In this document: positions 3,339 to 32,146 of the stretch, in pieces
Numbering within the stretch: the first letter of the stretch is position 1
How the letters are laid out: each line of letters begins with the position of its first letter
Virus record (IMG/VR): IMGVR_UViG_3300011434_000016
Span: 1-36,101 of that record
DNA length: 36,101 nt
Strand: one strand, 5' to 3'
DNA from: a virus
Taxonomy: Duplodnaviria > Caudoviricetes
Made by a program: the position numbers and the translations under genes
The notes under the pieces: model-generated
Seen by the model: the letters and a program-made list of their open reading frames with translations, nothing else
What the model was told of the DNA's origin: nothing
Database searches by the model: none

Positions 3339-3692
3339 GGACAGGTCCGCATGTGGCTGGCTGGGCTGTGCGCGACGCTCGGTGTCGGCGTGCTGGCCGG
3401 GCCTGGCTGGGCGCTGCTGGCCGCCGCCGCCGTGGTGTACCTGACCCCCACCCCGCAGACCCTCACCCGCCATGTCCAGGCTCTGGCCTCCCGAGGCGTG
3501 CGGGTGTGGCGGTGGGTCCTGACCGGCCGGCACCAGGTGGCCATGTCCGTGACGCCGGTCGCGATCGTGCTAGTGCCGTGGGGTGCCGGGGTGATCGCCG
3601 GGGCTGGCTGGGCCCTGCTCGTGTCCGGCGTGCTGGTGCTGGGCCTGGCGTTGCTGCTGGGCTGGGACTCCTCTGCGCGGCCTGCGCCGTGA
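3336..3692 (+). CDS. Small multi-pass membrane protein
   Basis: Two repeated hydrophobic hairpins (GxGVxAGxGWALL); position between terminase and portal. Confidence 0.75.
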   Translation: MGQVRMWLAGLCATLGVGVLAGPGWALLAAAAVVYLTPTPQTLTRHVQALASRGVRVWRWVLTGRHQVAMSVTPVAIVLVPWGAGVIAGAGWALLVSGVLVLGLALLLGWDSSARPAP

Positions 3693-4495
3693 TGCCTCTC
3701 CTGGCCCCGTTCGAGTCCGACGTGTGGACGGCGCTGGAGATCACGGACCCGGCCACCCGCGACGCGGTGCTGGCCGAGCTCGCCAAGGCCATCCACCGCG
3801 ACCGGCTGGGCCGGTTCTCCTCCGGCGGCGGCGGCGGCGGCGGGGCCGGGGCGGCCGATGGCGGGGCCGGTGCGGGCGGCGGTGCCGAGGCCGGCGCCGG
3901 TGGCGGGACGTTGTCCGCGGCGCAGGTGCATGAGGCGCTGCTGACCGACCTGGACGTCACCATGGCCCCCGACCAGCTCGACGGCCTCATGCACGCGATG
4001 GCCGGGGGGAAGGCGGTCAACCTGGAGCATCTGCAGGTGACCGGGGCCGGCAATGAGCACATGTTCCGGGAGCACTCCACCGAGACGCCGCGCTCGCGGA
4101 TGCCGCAGCTGCCCGAGACCGCCGAGGGGCTGCAGGCGTTCACCGACGACCTGTCCGCCCGGGGTGTGGGCATGCAGCTGCATCACGGGGTCGATCCGCG
4201 CAGCCTGCATGCGACGCAGAACGAGCTGGACGGGGCCAAGGTAGGCACCCTCTACGGGTACATCCGCGGGTCGGGCTGGCGCGAGGACTCGGTCATCATC
4301 GCCGCGCGGGACGGTTCCGTGGTCGACGGGCACCACCGGTGGGCCGCCGGGTCGGCGGCCCGGGTGGCCGGGCAGGACTTCGGGATCAACGTGCTGCAGA
4401 TCGACATGGGCATTGAGGATCTGCTGAGCATCGCCGAGACCCACTCCGGTGCGCACCGGTCAATGGACGCCGGCCTGGCCGGGGCGGCGGCATGA
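3692..4495 (+). CDS. ParB/Srx-like domain protein with N-terminal shared leader and Gly linker
   Basis: PRSRMPQL, LHATQNE, IIAARDGSVVDGHHRWAA motif. ATG overlaps the upstream TGA. Confidence 0.75.
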   Translation: MPLLAPFESDVWTALEITDPATRDAVLAELAKAIHRDRLGRFSSGGGGGGGAGAADGGAGAGGGAEAGAGGGTLSAAQVHEALLTDLDVTMAPDQLDGLMHAMAGGKAVNLEHLQVTGAGNEHMFREHSTETPRSRMPQLPETAEGLQAFTDDLSARGVGMQLHHGVDPRSLHATQNELDGAKVGTLYGYIRGSGWREDSVIIAARDGSVVDGHHRWAAGSAARVAGQDFGINVLQIDMGIEDLLSIAETHSGAHRSMDAGLAGAAA

Positions 4496-9721: not shown

Positions 9722-10096
9722 GTGTCGCCGGTGCCCCCTCACCCGAATATGCAAACCCTGAGGGAGCGAGCGATGAGGGTCAAAGTAGGCGGGCCGCTGG
9801 CGCACAGATGGAGCAGCGGCAAGATCGAATCGTGGACCGGGGCGGTGCTCCAGGTCGACGACGACGACGCCGAGCAGGTGGGGTTCTTCCGCCAGCTGGC
9901 CTCGGTGGGCAACGCGACCATGCTCGATGACCCGGGGGCGGACAAGCCCGACCCGGCGCCCGAGTCGCCCGAGCCGCCCGAGGTGCCACCCGCGGTCGAG
10001 CGGGTCGACAAGGCCGACGAGCCGGCGCCTGAGATGGCAGACAAGATCGACAGGCCCGCGGTGAAGAAAGCTCAGGCGAGGGCGGCCCACGAGTGA
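9722..10096 (+). CDS. Small capsid-adjacent protein with Pro/Glu-rich tail
   Basis: GGAGG SD; position directly after the capsid gene. Alternative start at 9773. Confidence 0.6.
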   Translation: MSPVPPHPNMQTLRERAMRVKVGGPLAHRWSSGKIESWTGAVLQVDDDDAEQVGFFRQLASVGNATMLDDPGADKPDPAPESPEPPEVPPAVERVDKADEPAPEMADKIDRPAVKKAQARAAHE

Positions 10097-12582
10097 AAAT
10101 CTTGTGGCACTCCGTCGCGCCGTGGGTGGGCACCGGCTACGGCAACCAGACCGGACTGTTCGCCCCGCGCGTGGCCAGCCTCGGTCACGACGTGGCGATC
10201 TCGGCCTACTACGGCCTGGCCGGCACAAAGATGCGGTGGCGCGGCCTGACCGTCTACCCGCACTACGCCGAGAGCTACGGCACCGACGTGGTCGTACCCC
10301 ACGCCCTGGATCACTTCGGCGCCACCGCGGGCAAGCACCTGAACATGCGCGAGGCCGCCGGCCGGGGCGTCATCATCACCCTGGGGGACGTGTGGACGTT
10401 CCGGGCGCCGCTGCTGGCCGAGATGAACGTGGCCGCGTGGGTGCCCATCGACCACGAGACGGTGCCGCCGATCGTGTCTGACTGGCTCAGCCAGATCGGG
10501 GCCATACCGATCGCCATGAGCCGGTTCGGCCAGCGCAAGCTACAGGAGCTGGGCCTGCCCGCCCTGTACGTGCCGCACGGCGTGGATACCTCGATCTTCC
10601 ATCCCGGTGACAAGGCCGAGGCCCGCGAGCGGGCGGGGCTGCCGGCCGATGCGTTCATCGTCGCGATGGTGGCCGCCAACATCGGCAAGGACGGCTCGCG
10701 GAAGGCGTTCGCGGAGCAGATCATCGCGTTCAAACAGCTGTACCGCCGCCACCCGGACTCGGTGCTGGCCCTGCACACGGACGTGACCAGCAAGTACGGC
10801 GTGAACGTCCTGCAGCTGCTGTCCGACCTGCCCGAGACGGCGTACGCGATCAGCGGCCAGTACGACTACCGGCTGGGCATGAGCCCCGAGCGGCTGGCCG
10901 ACATCTACCGCTCGGCGGACCTGTTCACGAACACGTCCTGGGGCGAGGGGTTCGGCGTACCCATCATCGAGGCGCAGGCGTGCGGGACGCCGGTCGTGGT
11001 CACCGATACCACCGCGATGCCCGAGCTGTGCGGGGCCGGCTGGGTTGTGCAGGGCGAGCCGTTCTGGCACGACAGCCAGAAGGCGTGGGCCCGCCGCCCG
11101 CTGATCGGGTCCATTGTGGACGCGTACCTGGCCGGCTACGACAAGGCCCGCGAGATCGAGGTCCGGGCCCGGGCGTGGGAGTTCGCCCAGGACTACGACG
11201 CCGACCGGGTCCTCACCGAGTACTTCAAGCCGGCCCTGGCCCAGATCGAGCAGGCCGCCGCCCGCCGCGCCAGCGACACCGTCACCGCCCCGCCCAGCGT
11301 GGTCGAGGCCGACGGGTTGCTGTGGCTGGAGCAGAGCGGGGCCGAGTTCGGCGAGCACCTGGGGCCCTCCGAGCATGAGGCAGCGCTGGCGCCGCTGATG
11401 GAGGCGCTGCTGCCCGAGGGCGGCACGTTCCTCGACGTCGGGGCGCACGTCGGACACTGGGCGCTGCGGCTGGCCGGCCGTGCCGGTGACGTGGTCGCGG
11501 TGGAGGCCAACCCCCGTACCGCCTCGGTGCTGCGCCGCAACGTTGCCCTCAACGACCTGGGCCACAAGGTAGCGGTGGTCGAGTCCGCGGCCTGGGACGA
11601 GGACACGGTGCTGCAGCTGCACCACCCCGACGGGCAGGGCGAGATCGGCGGATCTACCCGGGTCCTCGCGCACGGCGGGTCCGGGCAGGATGTGTCCGCC
11701 CGGCCCCTGGACGAGCTGCTGCACCTCAACCGGCTCGACCTGGTCAAGCTCGACGTCGAGGGCGCCGACCTTCACGCCCTGCGCGGCATGGCGGGGCTGC
11801 TGCGTTTACACGAACCGACCCTGCTGATCGAGTGTCACGACTACTGCGGCTACTACAGCCGCGACGAGTTGCACGCCACCCTCGACGTGCTCGGCTACAC
11901 CTACGAGGTGGCCCACCGGTATTGGTCGGACTGGACCGGGCAGGGCCCGACCGATACCCCGGTGCCCGCCGACTACCTGGTGGCGGTCCCGGCCGGGGCC
12001 AAGCTGCCCGCGGCTGCGGTAGCGGCGATCGCCTGCAGCATGCACCGGGCGTCCCAGCGTGAGGACGAGCTCGCCCAGGCGCTGGAGCTGGTCGCGTCGC
12101 TCGACCCGAAGGTCATCGTGGAGATCGGCTGCGACCTGGGCGGCACCCTGTTCGCGTGGCGCTGGACCGGGGCCGACGTGTACGGCATCACCCTGCCCGA
12201 GCAGGACAACACCTACCAGCAAGGCGGGCAGGACGGGCCCCTGGCCACCCACGGCGCCACCGTGCACGAGGGCGACTCGCACGACAAGAAAGCCCGGGCC
12301 TGGCTGCGTTCGGAGCTTCGGGGCCGCCCGGTCGACGTGCTCGTCCTAGACGGGGATCACAGCACCGAGGGGCTGCAGACCGACCTGGCCATGTACCGGC
12401 CGCTGGTGCGTGACGGCGGTTTGATCCTCGTGCACGACATCGCCAGCTACGGCGACCCGCGGGCCGAGGTGTGGAAGGTGTGGCCCGGCGTCGCCGGGGA
12501 CATGCCCACCACCGAAATCCGGTCCCGCACCGGGCGCCCGTTCGGCTGGGGCGTCATCCACGTACAACGACCGGGCGAGTAA
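10093..12582 (+). CDS. GT4-like glycosyltransferase fused to FkbM-type and second class I SAM methyltransferase domains
   Basis: TGYG.Q, VPHGVD..IF.P, TSWGEGFGVPIIEAQACGTPVV; FLDVGAHVG...VEANP...KLDVEG; IVEIG...GGT...LVLDGDH...DGGLILVHD. Confidence 0.88.
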   Translation: MKILWHSVAPWVGTGYGNQTGLFAPRVASLGHDVAISAYYGLAGTKMRWRGLTVYPHYAESYGTDVVVPHALDHFGATAGKHLNMREAAGRGVIITLGDVWTFRAPLLAEMNVAAWVPIDHETVPPIVSDWLSQIGAIPIAMSRFGQRKLQELGLPALYVPHGVDTSIFHPGDKAEARERAGLPADAFIVAMVAANIGKDGSRKAFAEQIIAFKQLYRRHPDSVLALHTDVTSKYGVNVLQLLSDLPETAYAISGQYDYRLGMSPERLADIYRSADLFTNTSWGEGFGVPIIEAQACGTPVVVTDTTAMPELCGAGWVVQGEPFWHDSQKAWARRPLIGSIVDAYLAGYDKAREIEVRARAWEFAQDYDADRVLTEYFKPALAQIEQAAARRASDTVTAPPSVVEADGLLWLEQSGAEFGEHLGPSEHEAALAPLMEALLPEGGTFLDVGAHVGHWALRLAGRAGDVVAVEANPRTASVLRRNVALNDLGHKVAVVESAAWDEDTVLQLHHPDGQGEIGGSTRVLAHGGSGQDVSARPLDELLHLNRLDLVKLDVEGADLHALRGMAGLLRLHEPTLLIECHDYCGYYSRDELHATLDVLGYTYEVAHRYWSDWTGQGPTDTPVPADYLVAVPAGAKLPAAAVAAIACSMHRASQREDELAQALELVASLDPKVIVEIGCDLGGTLFAWRWTGADVYGITLPEQDNTYQQGGQDGPLATHGATVHEGDSHDKKARAWLRSELRGRPVDVLVLDGDHSTEGLQTDLAMYRPLVRDGGLILVHDIASYGDPRAEVWKVWPGVAGDMPTTEIRSRTGRPFGWGVIHVQRPGE

Positions 12583-25706: not shown

Positions 25707-26285
25707 CTACGACTTGACCCGTGGATTCATCGCATCCAACGCGCTCGTACGACGCAGCTCACGCTGCGCCTCACGGAACGCGAGGGCCTGCGGCGACTCG
25801 ATCGCGTCCACCGCCTTGACCAACTCAGCAGCGCTGGCGGCCACCTCGGCTACCCGCATCGGCTGGGACTTCATCGCCCGGATCCGGGCACCGAGCTCAA
25901 CCATCCCGACCGCGGCTACCGCCATGAGGCCATCCACGGTGGCTGGCCAGATGTGGGCGTTGGTGGCCGACTCGCCATGGTCCGCGACAGCGGCCACCAT
26001 GTGCCAGTACGACAACCAGCCCGCAGCGCCAGCCACCGCGAGGGTGGCCGCAACACGTGTAAACGCGCCGAGCTTCTGGCCGGTGGGGATCCGGGTGAGC
26101 AGTTCCAGCGTCAACAGGAGACCCAAGGGCGGCCAGCCTGCGATGCCTTTGTTGATCAGGGTGTGGGCGTCAAGCTGGTTGACCGCGATCGAGACGGCAA
26201 CCCCAACGAACACGATGGAGGCAACGAACCACCGGGTCTTGCGGTAGTCGCGCAGCTGCTTTTCAGCCTCTGTACGTTCTTGCAT
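25707..26285 (-). CDS. DUF2637-like membrane protein
   Basis: Several TM segments; SYWHM..AV..HGE....A.IWP..VDGL. The start follows a repeat SD hairpin. Confidence 0.75.
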   Translation of the reverse strand: MQERTEAEKQLRDYRKTRWFVASIVFVGVAVSIAVNQLDAHTLINKGIAGWPPLGLLLTLELLTRIPTGQKLGAFTRVAATLAVAGAAGWLSYWHMVAAVADHGESATNAHIWPATVDGLMAVAAVGMVELGARIRAMKSQPMRVAEVAASAAELVKAVDAIESPQALAFREAQRELRRTSALDAMNPRVKS

Positions 26286-26424
26286 GGGTGGTCTCCCTCC
26301 ACCAGGCACCCTCGGACGGGGTGCGGGGTGCGGACGCGCCATTGAAGGCGACGGGGGAGAATGCCTGCCCGCTTGCCACGGACCCGTAAGGCGAATCGCC
26401 TCACGCTCGACGCGGCGGGGTGTT

Positions 26425-26649
26425 TCAGGACGGTCTGCGGGGCGATGTGTGCAGGTCCAGGCCGAGGACCGCGCATACGACCAGGATGCCCCGCAGCTCT
26501 ACCCGTCCAGTGGTCAACATGTTGACCAGCGCGGTGTGGCTGATGCCCGCCGCTGCGGCCAACTCGGCACGACTCAGACCACACCAGCGGCGGGCGGTGT
26601 CGATCTCGGTCATGAGCCCCGGCATCGGGTCGATCGGGCTCCGGGGCAC
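26425..26649 (-). CDS. XRE-family HTH protein
   Basis: ARRWCGLSRAELAAAAGISHTAL.N...G.......VCAVLGLDL. Start uncertain; TAGTGT -10 (26663-26658) suggests a near-leaderless GTG at 26649. Confidence 0.75.
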   Translation of the reverse strand: MPRSPIDPMPGLMTEIDTARRWCGLSRAELAAAAGISHTALVNMLTTGRVELRGILVVCAVLGLDLHTSPRRPS

Positions 26650-26704
26650 GGCAGCGAACACTACACCACACGGGGCGGGGGTTCACAACCCCCGCCCCGT
26701 GTTG

Positions 26705-26938
26705 TTACTCGTCTGCCTTGTCAGTGACCACGAGCAGCCACCGACCGCCCAGCCACGCGTAGGGCTTGGCTGGGTCCGGCGGCGGCGTGCACGTGTAGAC
26801 CGGGCCGAGCCGGGCCACGTCCCGACCAGCCAACGCCTGCAGCCGACTGACCTCTGCGGCAGCTGCGCCCTCGTCCGGGTAGCTGCCCGAGACCACATAC
26901 GCGCCCTGGGCGGTGAGGACCTCTACTGTGTACCTCAT
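26705..26938 (-). CDS. Array gene, 77 aa, ends in PPPDPAKPYAWLGGRWLLVVTD
   Basis: ATG directly after the repeat hairpin; a hairpin (26671-26699) follows the stop. Confidence 0.75.
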   Translation of the reverse strand: MRYTVEVLTAQGAYVVSGSYPDEGAAAAEVSRLQALAGRDVARLGPVYTCTPPPDPAKPYAWLGGRWLLVVTDKADE

Positions 26939-27034
26939 GTCGGTCTCCCTCCGACTTGGTGGGCCAGGGTGGGCCCGGGCGGTGCTGGGTCCGGTTGGGG
27001 AACGGGACCCAGCACCACCCCCACCCACCAGGGC

Positions 27035-27220
27035 CTACGCGCGGCAGCCTCTGGAAAGGCACAGGATCGCGTCCAGCCGTTTCGGCATCAACTGCCGCGA
27101 CCAGCCGGCCACGTACCGGCCGCACGCCGTCCATTCGGTCTGCCCGTCCATGAGCTTGTGCTGCAGGCAGGGCCGCCCTGCAGCGGACCGGGCGATCACA
27201 TAGACGTTTTTCAAGGGCAT
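27035..27220 (-). CDS. Array gene, 61 aa, His/Cys (possible Zn binding)
   Basis: MPLKNVYVIARS...QH...TACG...LC..RGC; follows a repeat. Confidence 0.72.
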   Translation of the reverse strand: MPLKNVYVIARSAAGRPCLQHKLMDGQTEWTACGRYVAGWSRQLMPKRLDAILCLSRGCRA

Positions 27221-27354
27221 TGTCGGTTTCTCCCTCCGACGTACCCGGACCGGGCCGGCCCGGGTTGGGTGAATGGCGGGGCCACGACAGCCCGGCCACC
27301 CGTTACCTTCCTGTAAGCGCCGTTCCCTAGCAAGCACGAGGTGCAGTGGCTTGA

Positions 27355-27516
27355 CTACGCCGACTGGACCGTGCCCGTGAGGGGATAGGGGCTGTGCACG
27401 CCGCCGATCAGCCGGTCCGCGTACTCCGCGTGGTCCCAGGCCATCCGGCCGTTGCGCTCGCGCCCGCGGATCTCGCGGTCGCACTGCTCGCACCTCGCGG
27501 TCAGGGTGTGCGCCAT
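27355..27516 (-). CDS. Array gene, 53 aa, CxxC...WxH...HxP
   Basis: MAHTLTARCEQCDREI...; follows a repeat variant. Confidence 0.72.
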   Translation of the reverse strand: MAHTLTARCEQCDREIRGRERNGRMAWDHAEYADRLIGGVHSPYPLTGTVQSA

Positions 27517-27602
27517 GACGGGTCTCCCTCCGTCCAGCCCGGCCCCTGGTAGGGCCGGGTCCAGTGAGCGGCGGGGCCACGACAGCCCCGCCCCTCCCGC
27601 TG

Positions 27603-27785
27603 TCATTCGGCCGGCTGGTACTCGACGCCGCCGGAGACGTACACCCGCATGGGGCCCAGGCAGAACAGGCCATAGGCGCCGAGGTTGACGAGCTTCGCGG
27701 AGATCCGCCACTCTTCCTCGGTCGCCAGCCGGACGAGCTCGCCGGTCTCGGCGTTGACGATCCAACCGTGCTTGATTCGCAGCAT
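27603..27785 (-). CDS. Array gene, 60 aa
   Basis: MLRIKHGWIVNAETGELVRLAT.EE...; follows an exact repeat. Confidence 0.75.
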   Translation of the reverse strand: MLRIKHGWIVNAETGELVRLATEEEWRISAKLVNLGAYGLFCLGPMRVYVSGGVEYQPAE

Positions 27786-27868
27786 TGTCGGTCTCCCTCC
27801 GACGTGCCCGCGCCTGCTGCGCGAGCTGAGCGGTCAGCGGGCCCACGACAGGCCCGCCGGCCCCGGTC

Positions 27869-28108
27869 TCAGTAGTCCTCCGGCCCCCACGCCTCACCGG
27901 CGTCCATCGGCGACCAGTCGGCCGGTGCGTGCACCGGGTAGCGCTCGTTGAGCTGGTCCTCCAGCTCCAGGCGCCGATCCCAGTGGAACTCACACCGCGG
28001 GAACGCCTGGCCGGTACCGCTCAACGGCATCCGGTACTCGATCATTCCCGCGCAACCCTCCGACCCATCGCCCGCATTGATGCACTCGTCGGGCTCTACC
28101 TCGTCCAT
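27869..28108 (-). CDS. Array gene, 79 aa acidic Cys/His protein
   Basis: C...C.G.IEYR.PLSGTG..FPRC..HW...APADW.P.DAGE.W; follows an exact repeat. Confidence 0.78.
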   Translation of the reverse strand: MDEVEPDECINAGDGSEGCAGMIEYRMPLSGTGQAFPRCEFHWDRRLELEDQLNERYPVHAPADWSPMDAGEAWGPEDY

Positions 28109-28195
28109 GTCGGTCTCCCTCCGACGTGCCCTGGCCCTGCTGGCCGGGGCCCAGCGACCGGCCGGGCCACGACAGCCCGGCCGGTCCTTTGTAGA

Positions 28196-28384
28196 TCACA
28201 CTGCGTCGCAATCGCACAGTGTCGTGAAACGGGTTGGTCGGCGCAGCATCTTCCACGAAGGATGGCGCTTAACGACGCGCCACCCTTTGGGAACGGGCAG
28301 CCCGAGCGGCACGGTCTGCTCCAGGTGTTCGCGCTCTCGCGCAGCCCCGCAGTCGGGGCAGCGCTCATCGACCCACACGCTCAT
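28196..28384 (-). CDS. Array gene, 62 aa, CPDCG...CDC
   Basis: ATG 28384 follows an exact repeat. Confidence 0.72.
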   Translation of the reverse strand: MSVWVDERCPDCGAAREREHLEQTVPLGLPVPKGWRVVKRHPSWKMLRRPTRFTTLCDCDAV

Positions 28385-28542
28385 GTCGGTCTCCCTCCGA
28401 CGTTGCTCGGCCCCGCTGGCCGAGCTGAGTGCCCCGCCGCCGTGTCGAACGGCGCGCTTCCCCTTCGGGGCCCTACGGTGTTGGTCGGGGGATGGGAGTG
28501 TCGTCAGCATTCCCATCCCCCCTATCCGTCTGTCAGGCAGCG

Positions 28543-29220
28543 CTAGCTACGTCGTGTAAACGCGGCGCCGCACGTGTCACAGTGAGCCTTGAAATCATCA
28601 GAGGCGGTGCGGACCTTGACCGGGCGCTCGCACTCGCACTCCCACAGCCGCAGGCGCGACCCCGACCCCTTCCCCCGGCTCGTACCACCCTTGGTGCCGA
28701 CCCCGGCCGAGCACGGCTTGGGAAGCACGATGTGCAGCCCCGAGCCGCCCCGCATGAACGCGGGCGAGCCGTCCCCGATCTCCGCCGCGAGGGCGTGGAC
28801 CCGGAAACGCAGTGCTGGGGCGAACATCGCCAGGCGGTACACCTGGCCCGCGGCCTCGGGCTTCACTGTGAACCCGAGCGAAACCGCGGCTTCCTTCCAT
28901 GCGCTGCCGTGGCCGGACCCCCATCCGGCGAGCACGTGCGCGAGTTCGTGGAGCGTGGTGCCAGCGAGCTGGACAAACGACTCCTGTGCCGACGCGGCGA
29001 CCTCGATCACATCGACCCGACCGACGCCGTTCTCCCACGCGTCGTAGTGGCAGACGCCTCGGTAGGAGCCGTCGCCGATCCCGTAGAGCAGTTTCGCGTG
29101 ACGCAGTCGCGCGGCTTGCTCTGCCGTGATGGTTCCCTCTGCCTCGGCGTGCGCGATGACGGCGTCGCGAGCCGACTGGAGGAACCTCTCGTGCGTCGTG
29201 GTGTGAGCTGGTGCAGACAT
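28543..29220 (-). CDS. SprT-like zinc metalloprotease
   Basis: TTLHELAHV...GHG..WK and C-terminal CEC...CDTCG zinc ribbon. Confidence 0.8.
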   Translation of the reverse strand: MSAPAHTTTHERFLQSARDAVIAHAEAEGTITAEQAARLRHAKLLYGIGDGSYRGVCHYDAWENGVGRVDVIEVAASAQESFVQLAGTTLHELAHVLAGWGSGHGSAWKEAAVSLGFTVKPEAAGQVYRLAMFAPALRFRVHALAAEIGDGSPAFMRGGSGLHIVLPKPCSAGVGTKGGTSRGKGSGSRLRLWECECERPVKVRTASDDFKAHCDTCGAAFTRRS

Positions 29221-29305
29221 GGCCTGCTCCCTTCCCTTTGTAGGGTGGGCGGCCCCTGATGGCCGCCCTAGCGGCAGGCGGGGCCACGACAGCCCCGCCG
29301 GCCTT

Positions 29306-29476
29306 TCAGTCCTCGCTGCTGTGCCGCCCGCAGACCGGCGTGAGGATCCACTCGATCGCCGTTCCGTCGCAGCGCGTACCGCGGGCCCGTGTGCAGCCGC
29401 ACCCGAGCTTGGTGCTCGTCACTGGTGCGATGTCTGTCACGTGGTTACGGCCGTTGCATGTGTGGAGGAGCTGCAT
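29306..29476 (-). CDS. Array gene, 56 aa Cys-rich (not in the ORF track)
   Basis: Translated by hand: MQLLHTCNGRNHVTDIAPVTSTKLGCGCTRARGTRCDGTAIEWILTPVCGRHSSED; follows an exact repeat. Confidence 0.7.
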   Translation of the reverse strand: MQLLHTCNGRNHVTDIAPVTSTKLGCGCTRARGTRCDGTAIEWILTPVCGRHSSED

Positions 29477-29560
29477 TGTCGGTCTCCCTCCGACGTGTCC
29501 GTCCCTAGTGGACGGACTGAGCAGCCGGCGGGCCCATGACAGGCCGGCCGGCCTGACCGG

Positions 29561-29782
29561 TCAGCCGTTGGGCCGCATCCTCCAGATGGGCGCCTGGGCT
29601 GGCCAGTCGAAGGTGATCTCGTCGGGCACGACCGCGGCCATGCTGGCGTAGGCCAGGCCGTGGATGCGGACGACGTCGTTGTGCGCGCCGGTCCGTTCCA
29701 CGTCCAGAACCTCGATGCACTTGGTGGCGTCGTAGCTCATGACGGTGTCGCCCTCGGCGACCTCCGCTGACTTGATCCACAT
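29561..29782 (-). CDS. Array gene, 73 aa
   Basis: Follows an exact repeat; bracketed by 45-bp identical direct repeats. Confidence 0.75.
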   Translation of the reverse strand: MWIKSAEVAEGDTVMSYDATKCIEVLDVERTGAHNDVVRIHGLAYASMAAVVPDEITFDWPAQAPIWRMRPNG

Positions 29783-29866
29783 GTCGGTCTCCCTCCGACG
29801 TGTCCGTCCCTAGTGGACGGACTGAGTGAACGGCGGGGGCTCACGCCGCCCGCCGCCCCTTTCGGA

Positions 29867-30082
29867 TCAGATCTCCACTGACGACGTGGTCTGGCGGATC
29901 AGCCGGTACCGAGTGGTCGGGCTGGTCGCCCGCAGCGCCTGGAGGCGTTCGCGGCCCGCGTCCTCGGTGTCGTAGCCGACCCGCGGCAGCGAGAACATGC
30001 CCTCCGGCAGTTCCGCGGTGTTCGCCCAGTACTCGTAGCCAGTGACCCACGCCTGCACGACGTAGATGGTGGTCAGGTCCAT
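29867..30082 (-). CDS. Array gene, 71 aa
   Basis: Follows an exact repeat. Confidence 0.75.
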   Translation of the reverse strand: MDLTTIYVVQAWVTGYEYWANTAELPEGMFSLPRVGYDTEDAGRERLQALRATSPTTRYRLIRQTTSSVEI

Positions 30083-30163
30083 GTCGGTCTCCCTCCGACG
30101 GACGGTCCCTTGTAGACCGTCAAAGCGAGCGGCGGGGGGTTCGACCCCCCCGCCGCCCTGAGT

Positions 30164-30340
30164 TCACGCAGCGATTACCTCGCCTGCCACCACGGTCTCA
30201 ATCGCGTCGAGGAGAAGCTCTTTCGCCGAGCAGTAGGACTCGAACGCGGTCTGCGTCCGGGTCCGGTCCAGCTCGATGACGGTCGCCTCAACCTTGGCGA
30301 GCAGGATCGTGAGTGCCTCGCGGGTGCTGAGTTTGCCCAT
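30164..30340 (-). CDS. First array gene, 58 aa helical protein
   Basis: MGKLSTREALTILLAKVEA...; follows the repeat variant GTGGG-AGGGAGA-CCCAC. Confidence 0.72.
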   Translation of the reverse strand: MGKLSTREALTILLAKVEATVIELDRTRTQTAFESYCSAKELLLDAIETVVAGEVIAA

Positions 30341-30359
30341 GTGGGTCTCCCTCCCACAG

Positions 30360-30933
30360 GACCGTCCGGAGTGGACGGTCGGAGTGGACTCTGCGGGTGC
30401 TGCCCCCGCCGCTGGTCTCACGCCCTGGTGCTCGATCGGGCTGCCTACACGTCCGGCTGGGAAAGTCCATGGGCCCCCGGGGCGCAGCTGGGATGGCTGC
30501 GGCCGCGCCGGGGGCGGGTTGTGTTCCTGAGGCTTCAAGAGGGGCCGAGGCGCCCGACTCTCACGGGCCCTGGCCTGTCTTGCGGTCTCATGAGCGCGTC
30601 TCTTAGGTCGGCAGGCTTTCACTGCAGCGCGGCCCTCGCGGGCACTCCTCCGTGGATTTGCTGTGGACCGTCGTCGGGCTTGCACCGACCGCGGCGATTC
30701 TCGCTCGGCCCCTCATGGAGCCTCAGGCGTTTTGGATCTTTGTGTTCCGCGGGCGGTCCCATCTAGGTTTCTCAGTTCCGGCGGTCCGGGGGCTTTGACT
30801 TCGGGTTCCGTTTCCTCGCGGTGGGCGACTGCTGTGCCCGCTTCCCTGGTCTTCCCCGTCCGGTTTCCCGTCTCGGAGTGGCTGGGCGCCTTTGGAGTTG
30901 TCCGGCCCTCGCGGGCCCTTCTCGTTCCCTTGC
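30360..30933 (-). ncRNA. Candidate large structured non-coding RNA or leader (~570 nt)
   Basis: No credible ORF. 24-nt helix 30704-30727/30526-30549, three T-loop-type hairpins, several GNRA-capped stems and A-rich linkers on the - strand. Begins just after a promoter. Confidence 0.65.
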
Positions 30934-30939
30934 ACCCCA

Positions 30940-30981
30940 AGTGTAACACACGCGCGTGTAAACGCAAACACACGCGCGTGT
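30940..30981 (-). promoter_or_regulatory. Leftward promoter overlapped by two palindromic operators
   Basis: TTGCGT (30967-30962), 16 nt, TGn-TACACT (30945-30940). Perfect palindrome ACACGCGCGTGT at 30948-30959 and 30970-30981. Confidence 0.7.
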
Positions 30982-31131
30982 TACTCCAGGGCCGCAGTCC
31001 TGACCAGGGCATACGTCCAAGTGACGCCCGCGCGTTTCCGCAGGTCAGGGGCTGTCAAGGGAACGAACCGGACGACTTTTCAGGTTGTCCGGTTATGCGG
31101 CGTGATGTTCGCCACATCCGCCGGACATGGC

Positions 31132-31170
31132 GAGGGCCGGCACCCCACGGAATGGGTGCCGGCCCTCTTT
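31132..31170. terminator. 14-bp hairpin, probable terminator
   Basis: GAGGGCCGGCACCC / GGGTGCCGGCCCTC, followed by TTT on +; lies just downstream of the minus-strand operon ending at 31184. Confidence 0.65.
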
Positions 31171-31183
31171 GGACGCCACGGGG

Positions 31184-31498
31184 CTACGGTCCCGCGCGTC
31201 GGTCTTCCGTGGAGCGGATCAGTTCAACCAGGCGACGGGCGACGTCTTCGGGCAGCGGCGGGGCCGCCTTCACAGCGGCGGCGATCCTGGCCTCGACGCG
31301 GGCGACGGCCAGGTCGTTGCGGGGATGGCAAGCCGCTGGCGGGCCAGCGCGGCTCTCATGATGCGGGCGGCCCGGGCCAGCTTCTCCGGGTTGTCGATAG
31401 CACGCTCGGCGTGCCACACCGGCGGCGGCTTCGGTCGCGGCCGCGCGCGGGCCGCTCTGGGTGGGAGGCCCGGCCGCCCCTTTGCCTGCCCGGGTCAC
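31184..31498 (-). CDS. Small APPL-motif protein (5' half may be frameshifted)
   Basis: C-terminal ARIAAAVKAAPPLPEDVARRLVELIR; GTG overlaps the upstream stop. Confidence 0.45.
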   Translation of the reverse strand: MTRAGKGAAGPPTQSGPRAAATEAAAGVARRACYRQPGEAGPGRPHHESRAGPPAACHPRNDLAVARVEARIAAAVKAAPPLPEDVARRLVELIRSTEDRRAGP

Positions 31499-31695: not shown

Positions 31696-31814
31696 GACCG
31701 GCCACCGTCGGGTGGAAGCAAAAGCACCGCCAGCCGGGCCCGCTGGGCCTCGGTCAGTGGCGGTGCGGCGGCGACAAGATCCCGGATGTACGCGTTGCGC
31801 AGCTCGCGCCTCAT
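31692..31814 (-). CDS. 40-aa APPL-motif protein (not in the ORF track)
   Basis: Translated by hand: MRRELRNAYIRDLVAAAPPLTEAQRARLAVLLLPPDGGRS; ATGA overlaps at both ends. Confidence 0.65.
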   Translation of the reverse strand: MRRELRNAYIRDLVAAAPPLTEAQRARLAVLLLPPDGGRS

Positions 31815-32146
31815 GCGCTGGCCTTCCGGTCATCGACGAATGTCCAGGTCTGGCCGCCGTCGGTGCTCACGGCGGCCGAGTCCCGACGGTTCTGCCAGAG
31901 CGGCGAGGCGGAGATCGCTGAGCGGTCTTCCCACTCCTCGGGGTCGGATGTGAGCGGCGAGAGGGTTCGGAATTGCAGCAGGGCATGCAGCTGCTCGACC
32001 GCGATCATGGCTGTGCCGCCGGAGTGGCCGCCATATGAGGCGAACGCGGCGACGGCGGCGACGATGCTGGCGGCGTAAGCGGGTGATTCTTCGGTTTGGC
32101 CGGATAGTTCTAGCTCGCGCCGGGCGTGGTCTACGAGGTTGCTCAT
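31811..32146 (-). CDS. Conserved-looking phage hypothetical protein
   Basis: AAAGGGAG SD; HARRELEL...GHSGG.A...L.PLT.DP.EW...WQN.R...S.DGG.TW. Confidence 0.75.
   Translation of the reverse strand: MSNLVDHARRELELSGQTEESPAYAASIVAAVAAFASYGGHSGGTAMIAVEQLHALLQFRTLSPLTSDPEEWEDRSAISASPLWQNRRDSAAVSTDGGQTWTFVDDRKASA

Follow-up and report, generated by a model that had tools for sequence, protein, structure and literature searches.

A probably modular, non-coding and structured leader with a tRNA-like element ahead of a small-gene array in an uncultured phage genome

Introduction

The early mRNA of phage T7 is punctuated by RNase III and mitochondrial transcripts are punctuated by tRNAs, and in both a polycistronic RNA is cut at folded spacers, as we propose below for a phage gene array. 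Closest to the element described here, which we predict to be cut from a longer transcript, are the P4 CI, P1/P7 C4 and phi80 M3 RNAs, small phage RNAs that carry a tRNA-like end and are processed by RNase P (PMC5499578, PMC11143913). According to the same two papers bacterial RNase P measures 12 bp and pairs with the R-C-C end, and it cuts hairpin model substrates, the phage M3, C4 and CI RNAs and some mRNAs. Mycobacteriophages of Cluster K and Microbacterium phages of Cluster EF have Start Associated Sequences, repeated and unusually conserved ribosome binding sites with complementary outer bases that sit just before the AUG of non-structural genes, and the extended repeats of Cluster K were judged not to form RNA hairpins (PMC3203893, PMC7302621). 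GOLLD and ROOL are large, phage-borne RNAs with tertiary-contact motifs that lie beside tRNAs or tRNA-like elements (PMC5737381; bioRxiv 10.1101/2024.12.08.627333). HK022 put (PMC9378689) and rrn boxA (PMC13753749) are parallels for the promoter-proximal RNA of an early operon, and a boxA-like word is found in some relatives of our locus. Finally, in cluster A mycobacteriophages and Rhodococcus phage WC1 a highly transcribed non-coding region at the right end heads the early arm (PMC10986025).

Here we describe a leader that shares features with all of these systems. It is real, non-coding, structured and uncatalogued, and probably modular rather than a single ornate RNA.

Results and Discussion

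The stretch of DNA that was analysed (the window) is a complete virus record of 36,101 bp with 70% GC, and its plus strand carries terminase, portal, capsid, tail and endolysin genes. The phage records matched by the endolysin are all (546/546) named Mycobacterium, Gordonia, Corynebacterium, Propionibacterium or Rhodococcus, and because all matches carry names of these five genera an actinobacterium is the probable host. No match above 37% exists for the capsid protein among 50,697 phage records. Amid the virion genes lie a cytidyltransferase-like gene (3353-4495, +) and a fused glycosyltransferase/methyltransferase gene (10093-12582, +). The leader comprises about 590 gene-free bases of the minus strand, which follow a promoter and precede some 12 short genes that form an array. 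Its features are given below in the direction of reading.

30940 to 30982, minus strand: promoter with a -35-like hexamer (30967-30962), a 16-nt spacer and an extended -10 (30945-30940), assigned from the sequence and from the layout in relatives
30890 to 30917, minus strand: GNRA-capped hairpin (30917-30904) together with a degenerate word resembling rrn boxA (30905-30890), whose 5' half is missing
30757 to 30886, minus strand: module B, a multi-stem domain of about 130 nt with A-rich junctions and many invariant bases in the promoter-proximal slot
30526 to 30727, minus strand: module C, a closing helix of 24 bp with a U.U mismatch at its centre, three T-loop hairpins and a GNRA stem
30474 to 30514, minus strand: module D, a GC-rich hairpin (folding z = -2.17), a shortened form of one that is common among the relatives
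30385 to 30468, minus strand: module E, a tRNA-like element of 84 nt at the 3' end of the leader
30338 to 30380, minus strand: cassette head made of an 8-bp hairpin with a 5-nt loop (30380-30360), a Shine-Dalgarno (SD) hairpin of 5-6 bp (30358-30340) and the AUG of the first gene
25707 to 30340, minus strand: gene array, about 12 short genes, mostly without a family

An assembly artefact is ruled out as the origin of the leader, because contigs of two other DNA runs carry the same sequence at a level of at least 99% over long pieces. There was no RNA run among the sequencing runs listed with matching sequence, which carries no weight for expression. A blastn search with the leader against the 50,697 phage records returned only short pieces at chance level, and no related loci were found via the SprT-like protein of the array. 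Model R1 was absent from those genomes that were searched among 151 of the phylum of G001, a set that contains no positive control. Motif scans (start-site and module motifs) and later fetches gave a collection of 164 loci, from which 30 leaders were delimited by hand among those with nhmmer or motif similarity; this set includes near-duplicates and is not random. Duplicate loci, for example L112/L058 and L088/L001, entered the counts a single time, and L084-L086, the window's own contig, were excluded from all counts. The pattern matches L136, L138, L139, L142 and L160 as well as most of L014-L039 were judged to be chance and dropped, and so were the ten loci L125-L134, which had no E match.

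The preliminary description of this DNA, made from the sequence alone, had named a clear promoter. The extended -10, the -35-like hexamer and the layout in relatives, which show a TAnnnT-type hexamer at the corresponding place (three automatic picks lie a few bases off), speak for a promoter, which a strict sigma-70 scan did not call (0 found). Transcription is predicted to start near 30933. Two near-palindromic 16-bp copies (30982-30967 and 30960-30945) overlap the promoter and are likely an operator. Phage-specific palindromes overlap each leader promoter (30982-30945 in the window; also L046, L007, L137 and L141), often with a small divergent repressor-like gene beside them. Upstream of the leader promoter, at 31811-32146 (-), lies an anti-defence gene with a match to Pfam Tad3, a Thoeris inhibitor (92.9 bits against a cut-off of 27).

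The leader is rich in A and poor in U (23% and 8%, vs 17% and 14% in the array). As a whole it folds with a z of -2.87, with 0/20 shuffles equally stable. Three T-loop hairpins arose in 0/5000 dinucleotide shuffles of 30360-30933 and a 24-nt helix with at most two mismatches in 1/300 shuffles, and the T-loop hairpin form (2-nt bulge, stem of at least 4) is found at just four other sites on both strands of the 36-kb window. The word next to the GNRA hairpin was compared with a reference that lies about 225 nt before what we take to be the 16S start at 2/2 places in genome G001 and that is presumably the actinobacterial boxA; its position before 16S was checked, and Rfam gave no hit on the G001 contig ends with this word. 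The window's copy matches at 11/16 positions, relatives at up to 14/16 and reversed controls at up to 11/16.

Module C contains the structure for which the region had been singled out. A 24-nt helix with 22/24 Watson-Crick pairs around some 155 nt had been proposed and is indeed present (30727-30704 with 30549-30526 on the minus strand, enclosing 154 nt), together with three T-loop-form hairpins (30689-30673, 30625-30611 and 30568-30552) and three GNRA stems, at 30643-30632 inside module C and at 30870-30861 and 30917-30904 outside it. Six distinct examples of C occur in 5 of 20 scanned leaders, with helices of 13-29 bp and two to three T-loop hairpins each, and four of the six have the central U.U. 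Compared with the copy L137b, 11/22 pairs are altered on both sides and none is broken; the count against L058 (5 changed) was left unused, being inflated by a one-base register shift. Module C folds with a z of -3.09. A duplex of two helical turns, such as its stalk, suits RNase III. In the L137 leader (about 1840-2440) two module-C domains are each followed by the same repeat of about 50 nt, suggesting duplication or exchange by recombination. A twister-sister match of C in the window (16 bits, E 4.2, vs a threshold of 34 bits) was rejected, and it was absent from a rescan of the window's module C and three relatives.

Module B was aligned with six full homologues, in which five pairs of the closing helix show compensatory changes, and its inner structure is tentative. 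It begins about 50 nt past the -10 box, a slot kept in 6/6, and it is present in 6 of the 30 leaders, never alongside the modules G, H or I described below; near-identical copies occur in soil DNA runs. By itself B folds no better than shuffles (z +0.54), and the same is true for E (z -0.27), so the support for these two modules is comparative. For module D a profile of the D-type hairpin built from L058 collected five leaders and missed the window's copy, and for that reason its putative homology rests on inspection plus one partial contig match.

The covariation that had been asked for as a check on the RNA is thus found, structures being kept in homologues through compensatory changes, and the search of Rfam gave nothing at gathering score in the window, which places the RNA in no Rfam family. 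The GOLLD and ROOL models gave no match at gathering score in the window, at E ≤10 in 29800-31300 or at E ≤1 in 13 related loci, and module B had no Rfam match of any kind in the window region at E ≤10 or in the 13 loci at E ≤1. Cobalamin, FMN and c-di-AMP riboswitches, T-box, RNase P RNA, group I/II introns and Y RNA gave no Rfam match at E ≤10. A weak Rfam hit to Acido-1 (26.8 bits on a spacer hairpin) was rejected. Likenesses of module C to cobalamin/FMN riboswitches and of the 3' part of module B to a 23S rRNA helix were considered and found no support in Rfam.

Module E, which is tRNA-like and forms the 3' end of the interval, was missing from the preliminary description. It has an acceptor-like stem of 7 bp (30468-30462 with 30392-30386), a long inner arm, a T stem of 5 bp (30409-30393) with a non-canonical 7-nt loop, and a discriminator A (30385) followed by C-U-C. 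When 16 copies were aligned by MAFFT alone, 90% of the cells were paired and 10/14 pairs showed compensatory changes, a pairing which 0/500 shuffles and no slid control came near. The model built from these 16 copies recovered further copies outside the building set. With 24 copies 12/14 pairs covary, in an alignment fitted to the model and among related sequences, and the five strongest pairs by corrected mutual information in this model-fitted alignment are all pairs of the model. An apparent covariation linking position 9 to the T loop was set aside because it probably reflects one subfamily.

In 20/24 copies a 5-bp stem with a 7-nt loop is followed by exactly 7 nt, a purine and a C, and the other four are off by one base; G1-C72 is present in 23/23. 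The loops are mostly of the tRNA T-loop type, and the subfamily of the window deviates from the tRNA consensus. Contiguous acceptor pairing amounts to 5 bp in 13/24 copies, 6-7 bp in six and fewer in five, and the window's own copy has 7 + 5 bp. An RCCA end was found in 0/24, the copies ending mostly in R-C-U or R-C-G. The inner arm holds a conserved and covarying 4-bp stem with a 12-nt loop, and the copies are 84-103 nt long. Module E thus shows the geometry of an RNase P substrate, with a stack of about 12 bp, a 7-nt loop, G1-C72, a purine at 73 and C74, and a cut is predicted between 30469 and 30468. Module E occurs also between genes in L065 and L150. As an ordinary tRNA or tmRNA it was rejected, since ARAGORN called none in the window and 19 loci and Rfam gave no tRNA or tmRNA hit.

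Among cultured phages, Bridgette, Ryan, Maja and other Arthrobacter phages possess an unannotated tRNA-like element (27 records matched, 15 of them over 80% of the query), which lies in Bridgette between genes 53 and 54 (L153 2463-2549; also L162 and L163) and has no Rfam match. It shows a 7-bp acceptor stem and a canonical T arm, and in Bridgette the CCA end is encoded. The E model scores 15-27 bits on these elements, a weak and putative kinship. A further unannotated tRNA-like sequence lies at the right end of Mycobacterium phage Gaia (L161 2918-3028), with D-arm-like and T arms, an encoded CCA and an enlarged middle; ARAGORN made no call on it.

Behind the leader, the array includes a SprT/HEXXH-like gene (29220-28543) and a DUF2637 gene (26342-25707). 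The spacers before the genes at 30082, 29782, 29476, 28108 and 27785 consist of a 12-14-bp hairpin, R-C-U and a cassette head, and thereby repeat the 12-bp-plus-R-C-U shape of E. The window has eight regex-matched cassette copies, and 81 distinct ones occur across all loci. The first hairpin of the cassette head (6-11 bp, just before the SD hairpin) is present in 75/81, with a 5-nt loop in 56/75, and R-C-U stands immediately before the head in 50/75, with counts of 6 and 14 when the position is shifted as a control. In 15/75 cassettes a simple hairpin has its end at the purine (13/15 with stems of 11-14 bp), and the remaining ones carry E or other folded modules. One recurrent folded module, M (about 26372-26330, -), lies before the DUF2637 gene, and similar ones precede cassette heads in more than 10 related loci. 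The spacer hairpins had been taken for terminators to be read through; no U tract follows them and no U-tract terminator exists within the array, and they show the geometry of RNase P substrates instead.

In the related loci the common layout is a palindromic promoter, 200-650 non-coding bases, a cassette head and the first gene. A census of the 30 leaders, with the C and E columns entered from separate scans, counted 20 with E, 6 with B and 5 with C, none of the modules being universal. Modules absent from the window were G in 5, H in 6, I in 2, J in 2 and L in 9 leaders. Conserved modules of 70-160 nt among these, each a candidate RNA family, are located as follows.

Module G: L012 4688-4840, L096 3920-4080, L063, L007, L149
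Module H: L097, L070, L104, L044, L141, L009
Module I: L005, L100
Module J: L097, L044

Each contig from the other runs agrees with one module of the window and departs from its sequence where that module ends, and in soil contigs B is joined to a C of the L058 type. We are highly confident that the leader is a non-coding, structured mosaic of separately conserved modules.

From the tRNA top-half geometry of E we consider it likely that this module would serve as a cutting site for host RNase P, and processing by this enzyme appears to be the best-supported mechanism. In our model the leader and the array would be copied by the host RNA polymerase into a single early transcript that begins at about 30933. 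Host RNase P would cleave it immediately before E, at 30469/30468, and before every spacer hairpin, and a 3' tRNA-processing nuclease would cut after the discriminator. The products would be a B-C-D RNA of about 460 nt, a tRNA-like RNA of about 85 nt and single-gene mRNAs, each starting a few bases before a protective hairpin that is followed by the hairpin-held Shine-Dalgarno site. RNase III may cut the stalk of about 24 bp in C and free the T-loop domain. The freed B, C and E RNAs would be optional cargo, swapped like the small genes behind them, and would probably act in trans on host or defence factors. We lean slightly towards this complete model of an RNase P-punctuated early transcript with trans-acting cargo. 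Several findings stand against the processing part. The window's T loop is off-consensus and its end is R-C-U and not R-C-C-A, where the U at position 75 could still form a wobble pair; the contiguous acceptor stem is 5 and not 7 bp in 13/24 E copies; and simple hairpins that end at the purine are limited to 15/75 cassettes.

A bolder version, which we put forward tentatively, sees the modules as RNA-only effectors that are stocked and swapped like genes and cut out by RNase P at tRNA mimics, with C as a binder of the tRNA elbow or of a nucleotide and B as an RNA-polymerase-binding or catalytic RNA. It covers at least the modules B, C, E, G, H, I, J and M, all of them missing from Rfam where scanned, and if true the phage would, seconds after entering the cell, possess tools against host transcription or defence that need no translation.

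The main rival to trans-acting cargo, which we hold to be rather doubtful, is that the leader acts mainly in cis: under the influence of B (or G, H, I) and the boxA-like word, a modified RNA polymerase would pass the Rho-dependent sites of the array, a reading that leaves room for processing at E. Each of B, G, H and I lies directly after the promoter, they never co-occur in the 30 leaders, and because they are mutually exclusive in this first slot a function in cis fits them better than cargo. The intact rrn-leader word is present in 6/30 leaders, in 4/10 without B, G, H or I vs 2/20 with one of them, a split that is small and confounded by kinship. HK022 put, a nascent early-leader RNA, acts alone on RNA polymerase (PMC9378689), and a boxA-like RNA binds NusB in B. 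subtilis (PMC13753749). However, the array has no U-tract terminator, no module is universal, B is without an Rfam match, and the word is broken in the window, its 11/16 equalling the best control. The put-like antitermination suggested at the outset thus keeps a possible cis role for module B and loses its premise of terminators in the spacers.

That the region is a single integrated RNA of about 460-590 nt like the abundant and stable, nanocage-forming GOLLD or ROOL RNAs, with docking domains and perhaps multimeric, is improbable. Its length is near the 581 nt that ROOL RNAs average (PMC5737381), partners are required by T-loop hairpins and GNRA loops, and the window's succession of C, D-type hairpin and E recurs in L058. 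Against this, every module is found without the others, the B-C-D-E combination is present in 1/30 leaders with B, C and E together in the window alone, and there is neither a match to GOLLD or ROOL nor a conserved helix joining two modules. The large ornate RNA of the preliminary description consequently gives way to parts that assort independently among relatives.

We regard it as quite improbable that E is mainly a tRNA decoy or mimic, aimed at anticodon nucleases, synthetases, EF-Tu or T-box-like sensors, with cutting as its maturation. The conserved inner arm goes beyond the needs of a bare cutting site and the phage has the Tad3 gene upstream, but ARAGORN finds no cloverleaf in the window or the 19 loci, and simple hairpins of the same geometry occupy that slot in other cassettes.

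Very improbable is an opening of the cassette SD hairpins by base pairing with the leader, the activation of SD-occluded cassettes that had also been considered. The window's leader pairs with its own SD hairpin better than 197/200 shuffles because T-loop hairpin 1 shares the stem sequence; this stem sequence differs in L058 and L001, and the other leaders were negative (5/5, with 75-183/200 shuffles as good), leaving one of six that beats shuffles. Membership among the C4/CI antisense RNAs was likewise rejected, with no Rfam hit and with SD-hairpin pairing, the sole target tested, positive in 1/6 leaders. Finally, the chance that the region encodes a protein on one strand is negligible: open frames of 60-232 codons exist on both strands, as expected at 70% GC, and the nine overlapping frames hold 0 Pfam families while homologues show no coding signal, with compensatory changes and indels of all lengths (84-103 nt in E copies), which agrees with the region having been described as non-coding.

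Conclusion

In summary, at least three covarying RNA families (B, C and E) outside Rfam 15 are present in a widespread group of uncultured actinophages. No published description of these modules was found in what was mainly open literature, setting aside the supplements of two motif surveys (PMC5737381, PMC2864571), which list additional motifs, a part of them outside Rfam. The results bear on two questions about actinophages, the role of start-associated repeats and the nature of the strongly transcribed non-coding heads of early arms, and the cultured Arthrobacter phages Bridgette, Ryan, Maja and others offer a bench system, with a kinship to E that is weak (15-27 bits).

Compared with the cluster A and WC1 regions the leader occupies a similar place, with no sequence likeness detected. 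From GOLLD and ROOL it differs in having no model match and in parts that assort freely instead of forming one conserved fold of 500-800 nt with pseudoknots, and from HK022 put and rrn boxA in showing no match in sequence or structure and a broken boxA-like word in the window. The SD cassettes of the window fall under the definition of Start Associated Sequences given in PMC3203893 and differ in sequence from the Cluster K consensus; here, 5-bp arms with compensatory variants are found, in every case preceded by a folded element and an 8-bp hairpin. If our model is true, a phage punctuates an mRNA array by tRNA mimicry, and for RNase P in such a role we found no description in the literature searched. 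In contrast to the punctuation of T7 and mitochondrial transcripts, the spacers in this phage mRNA have an RNase P-type geometry, and the units that they would separate include non-coding domains.
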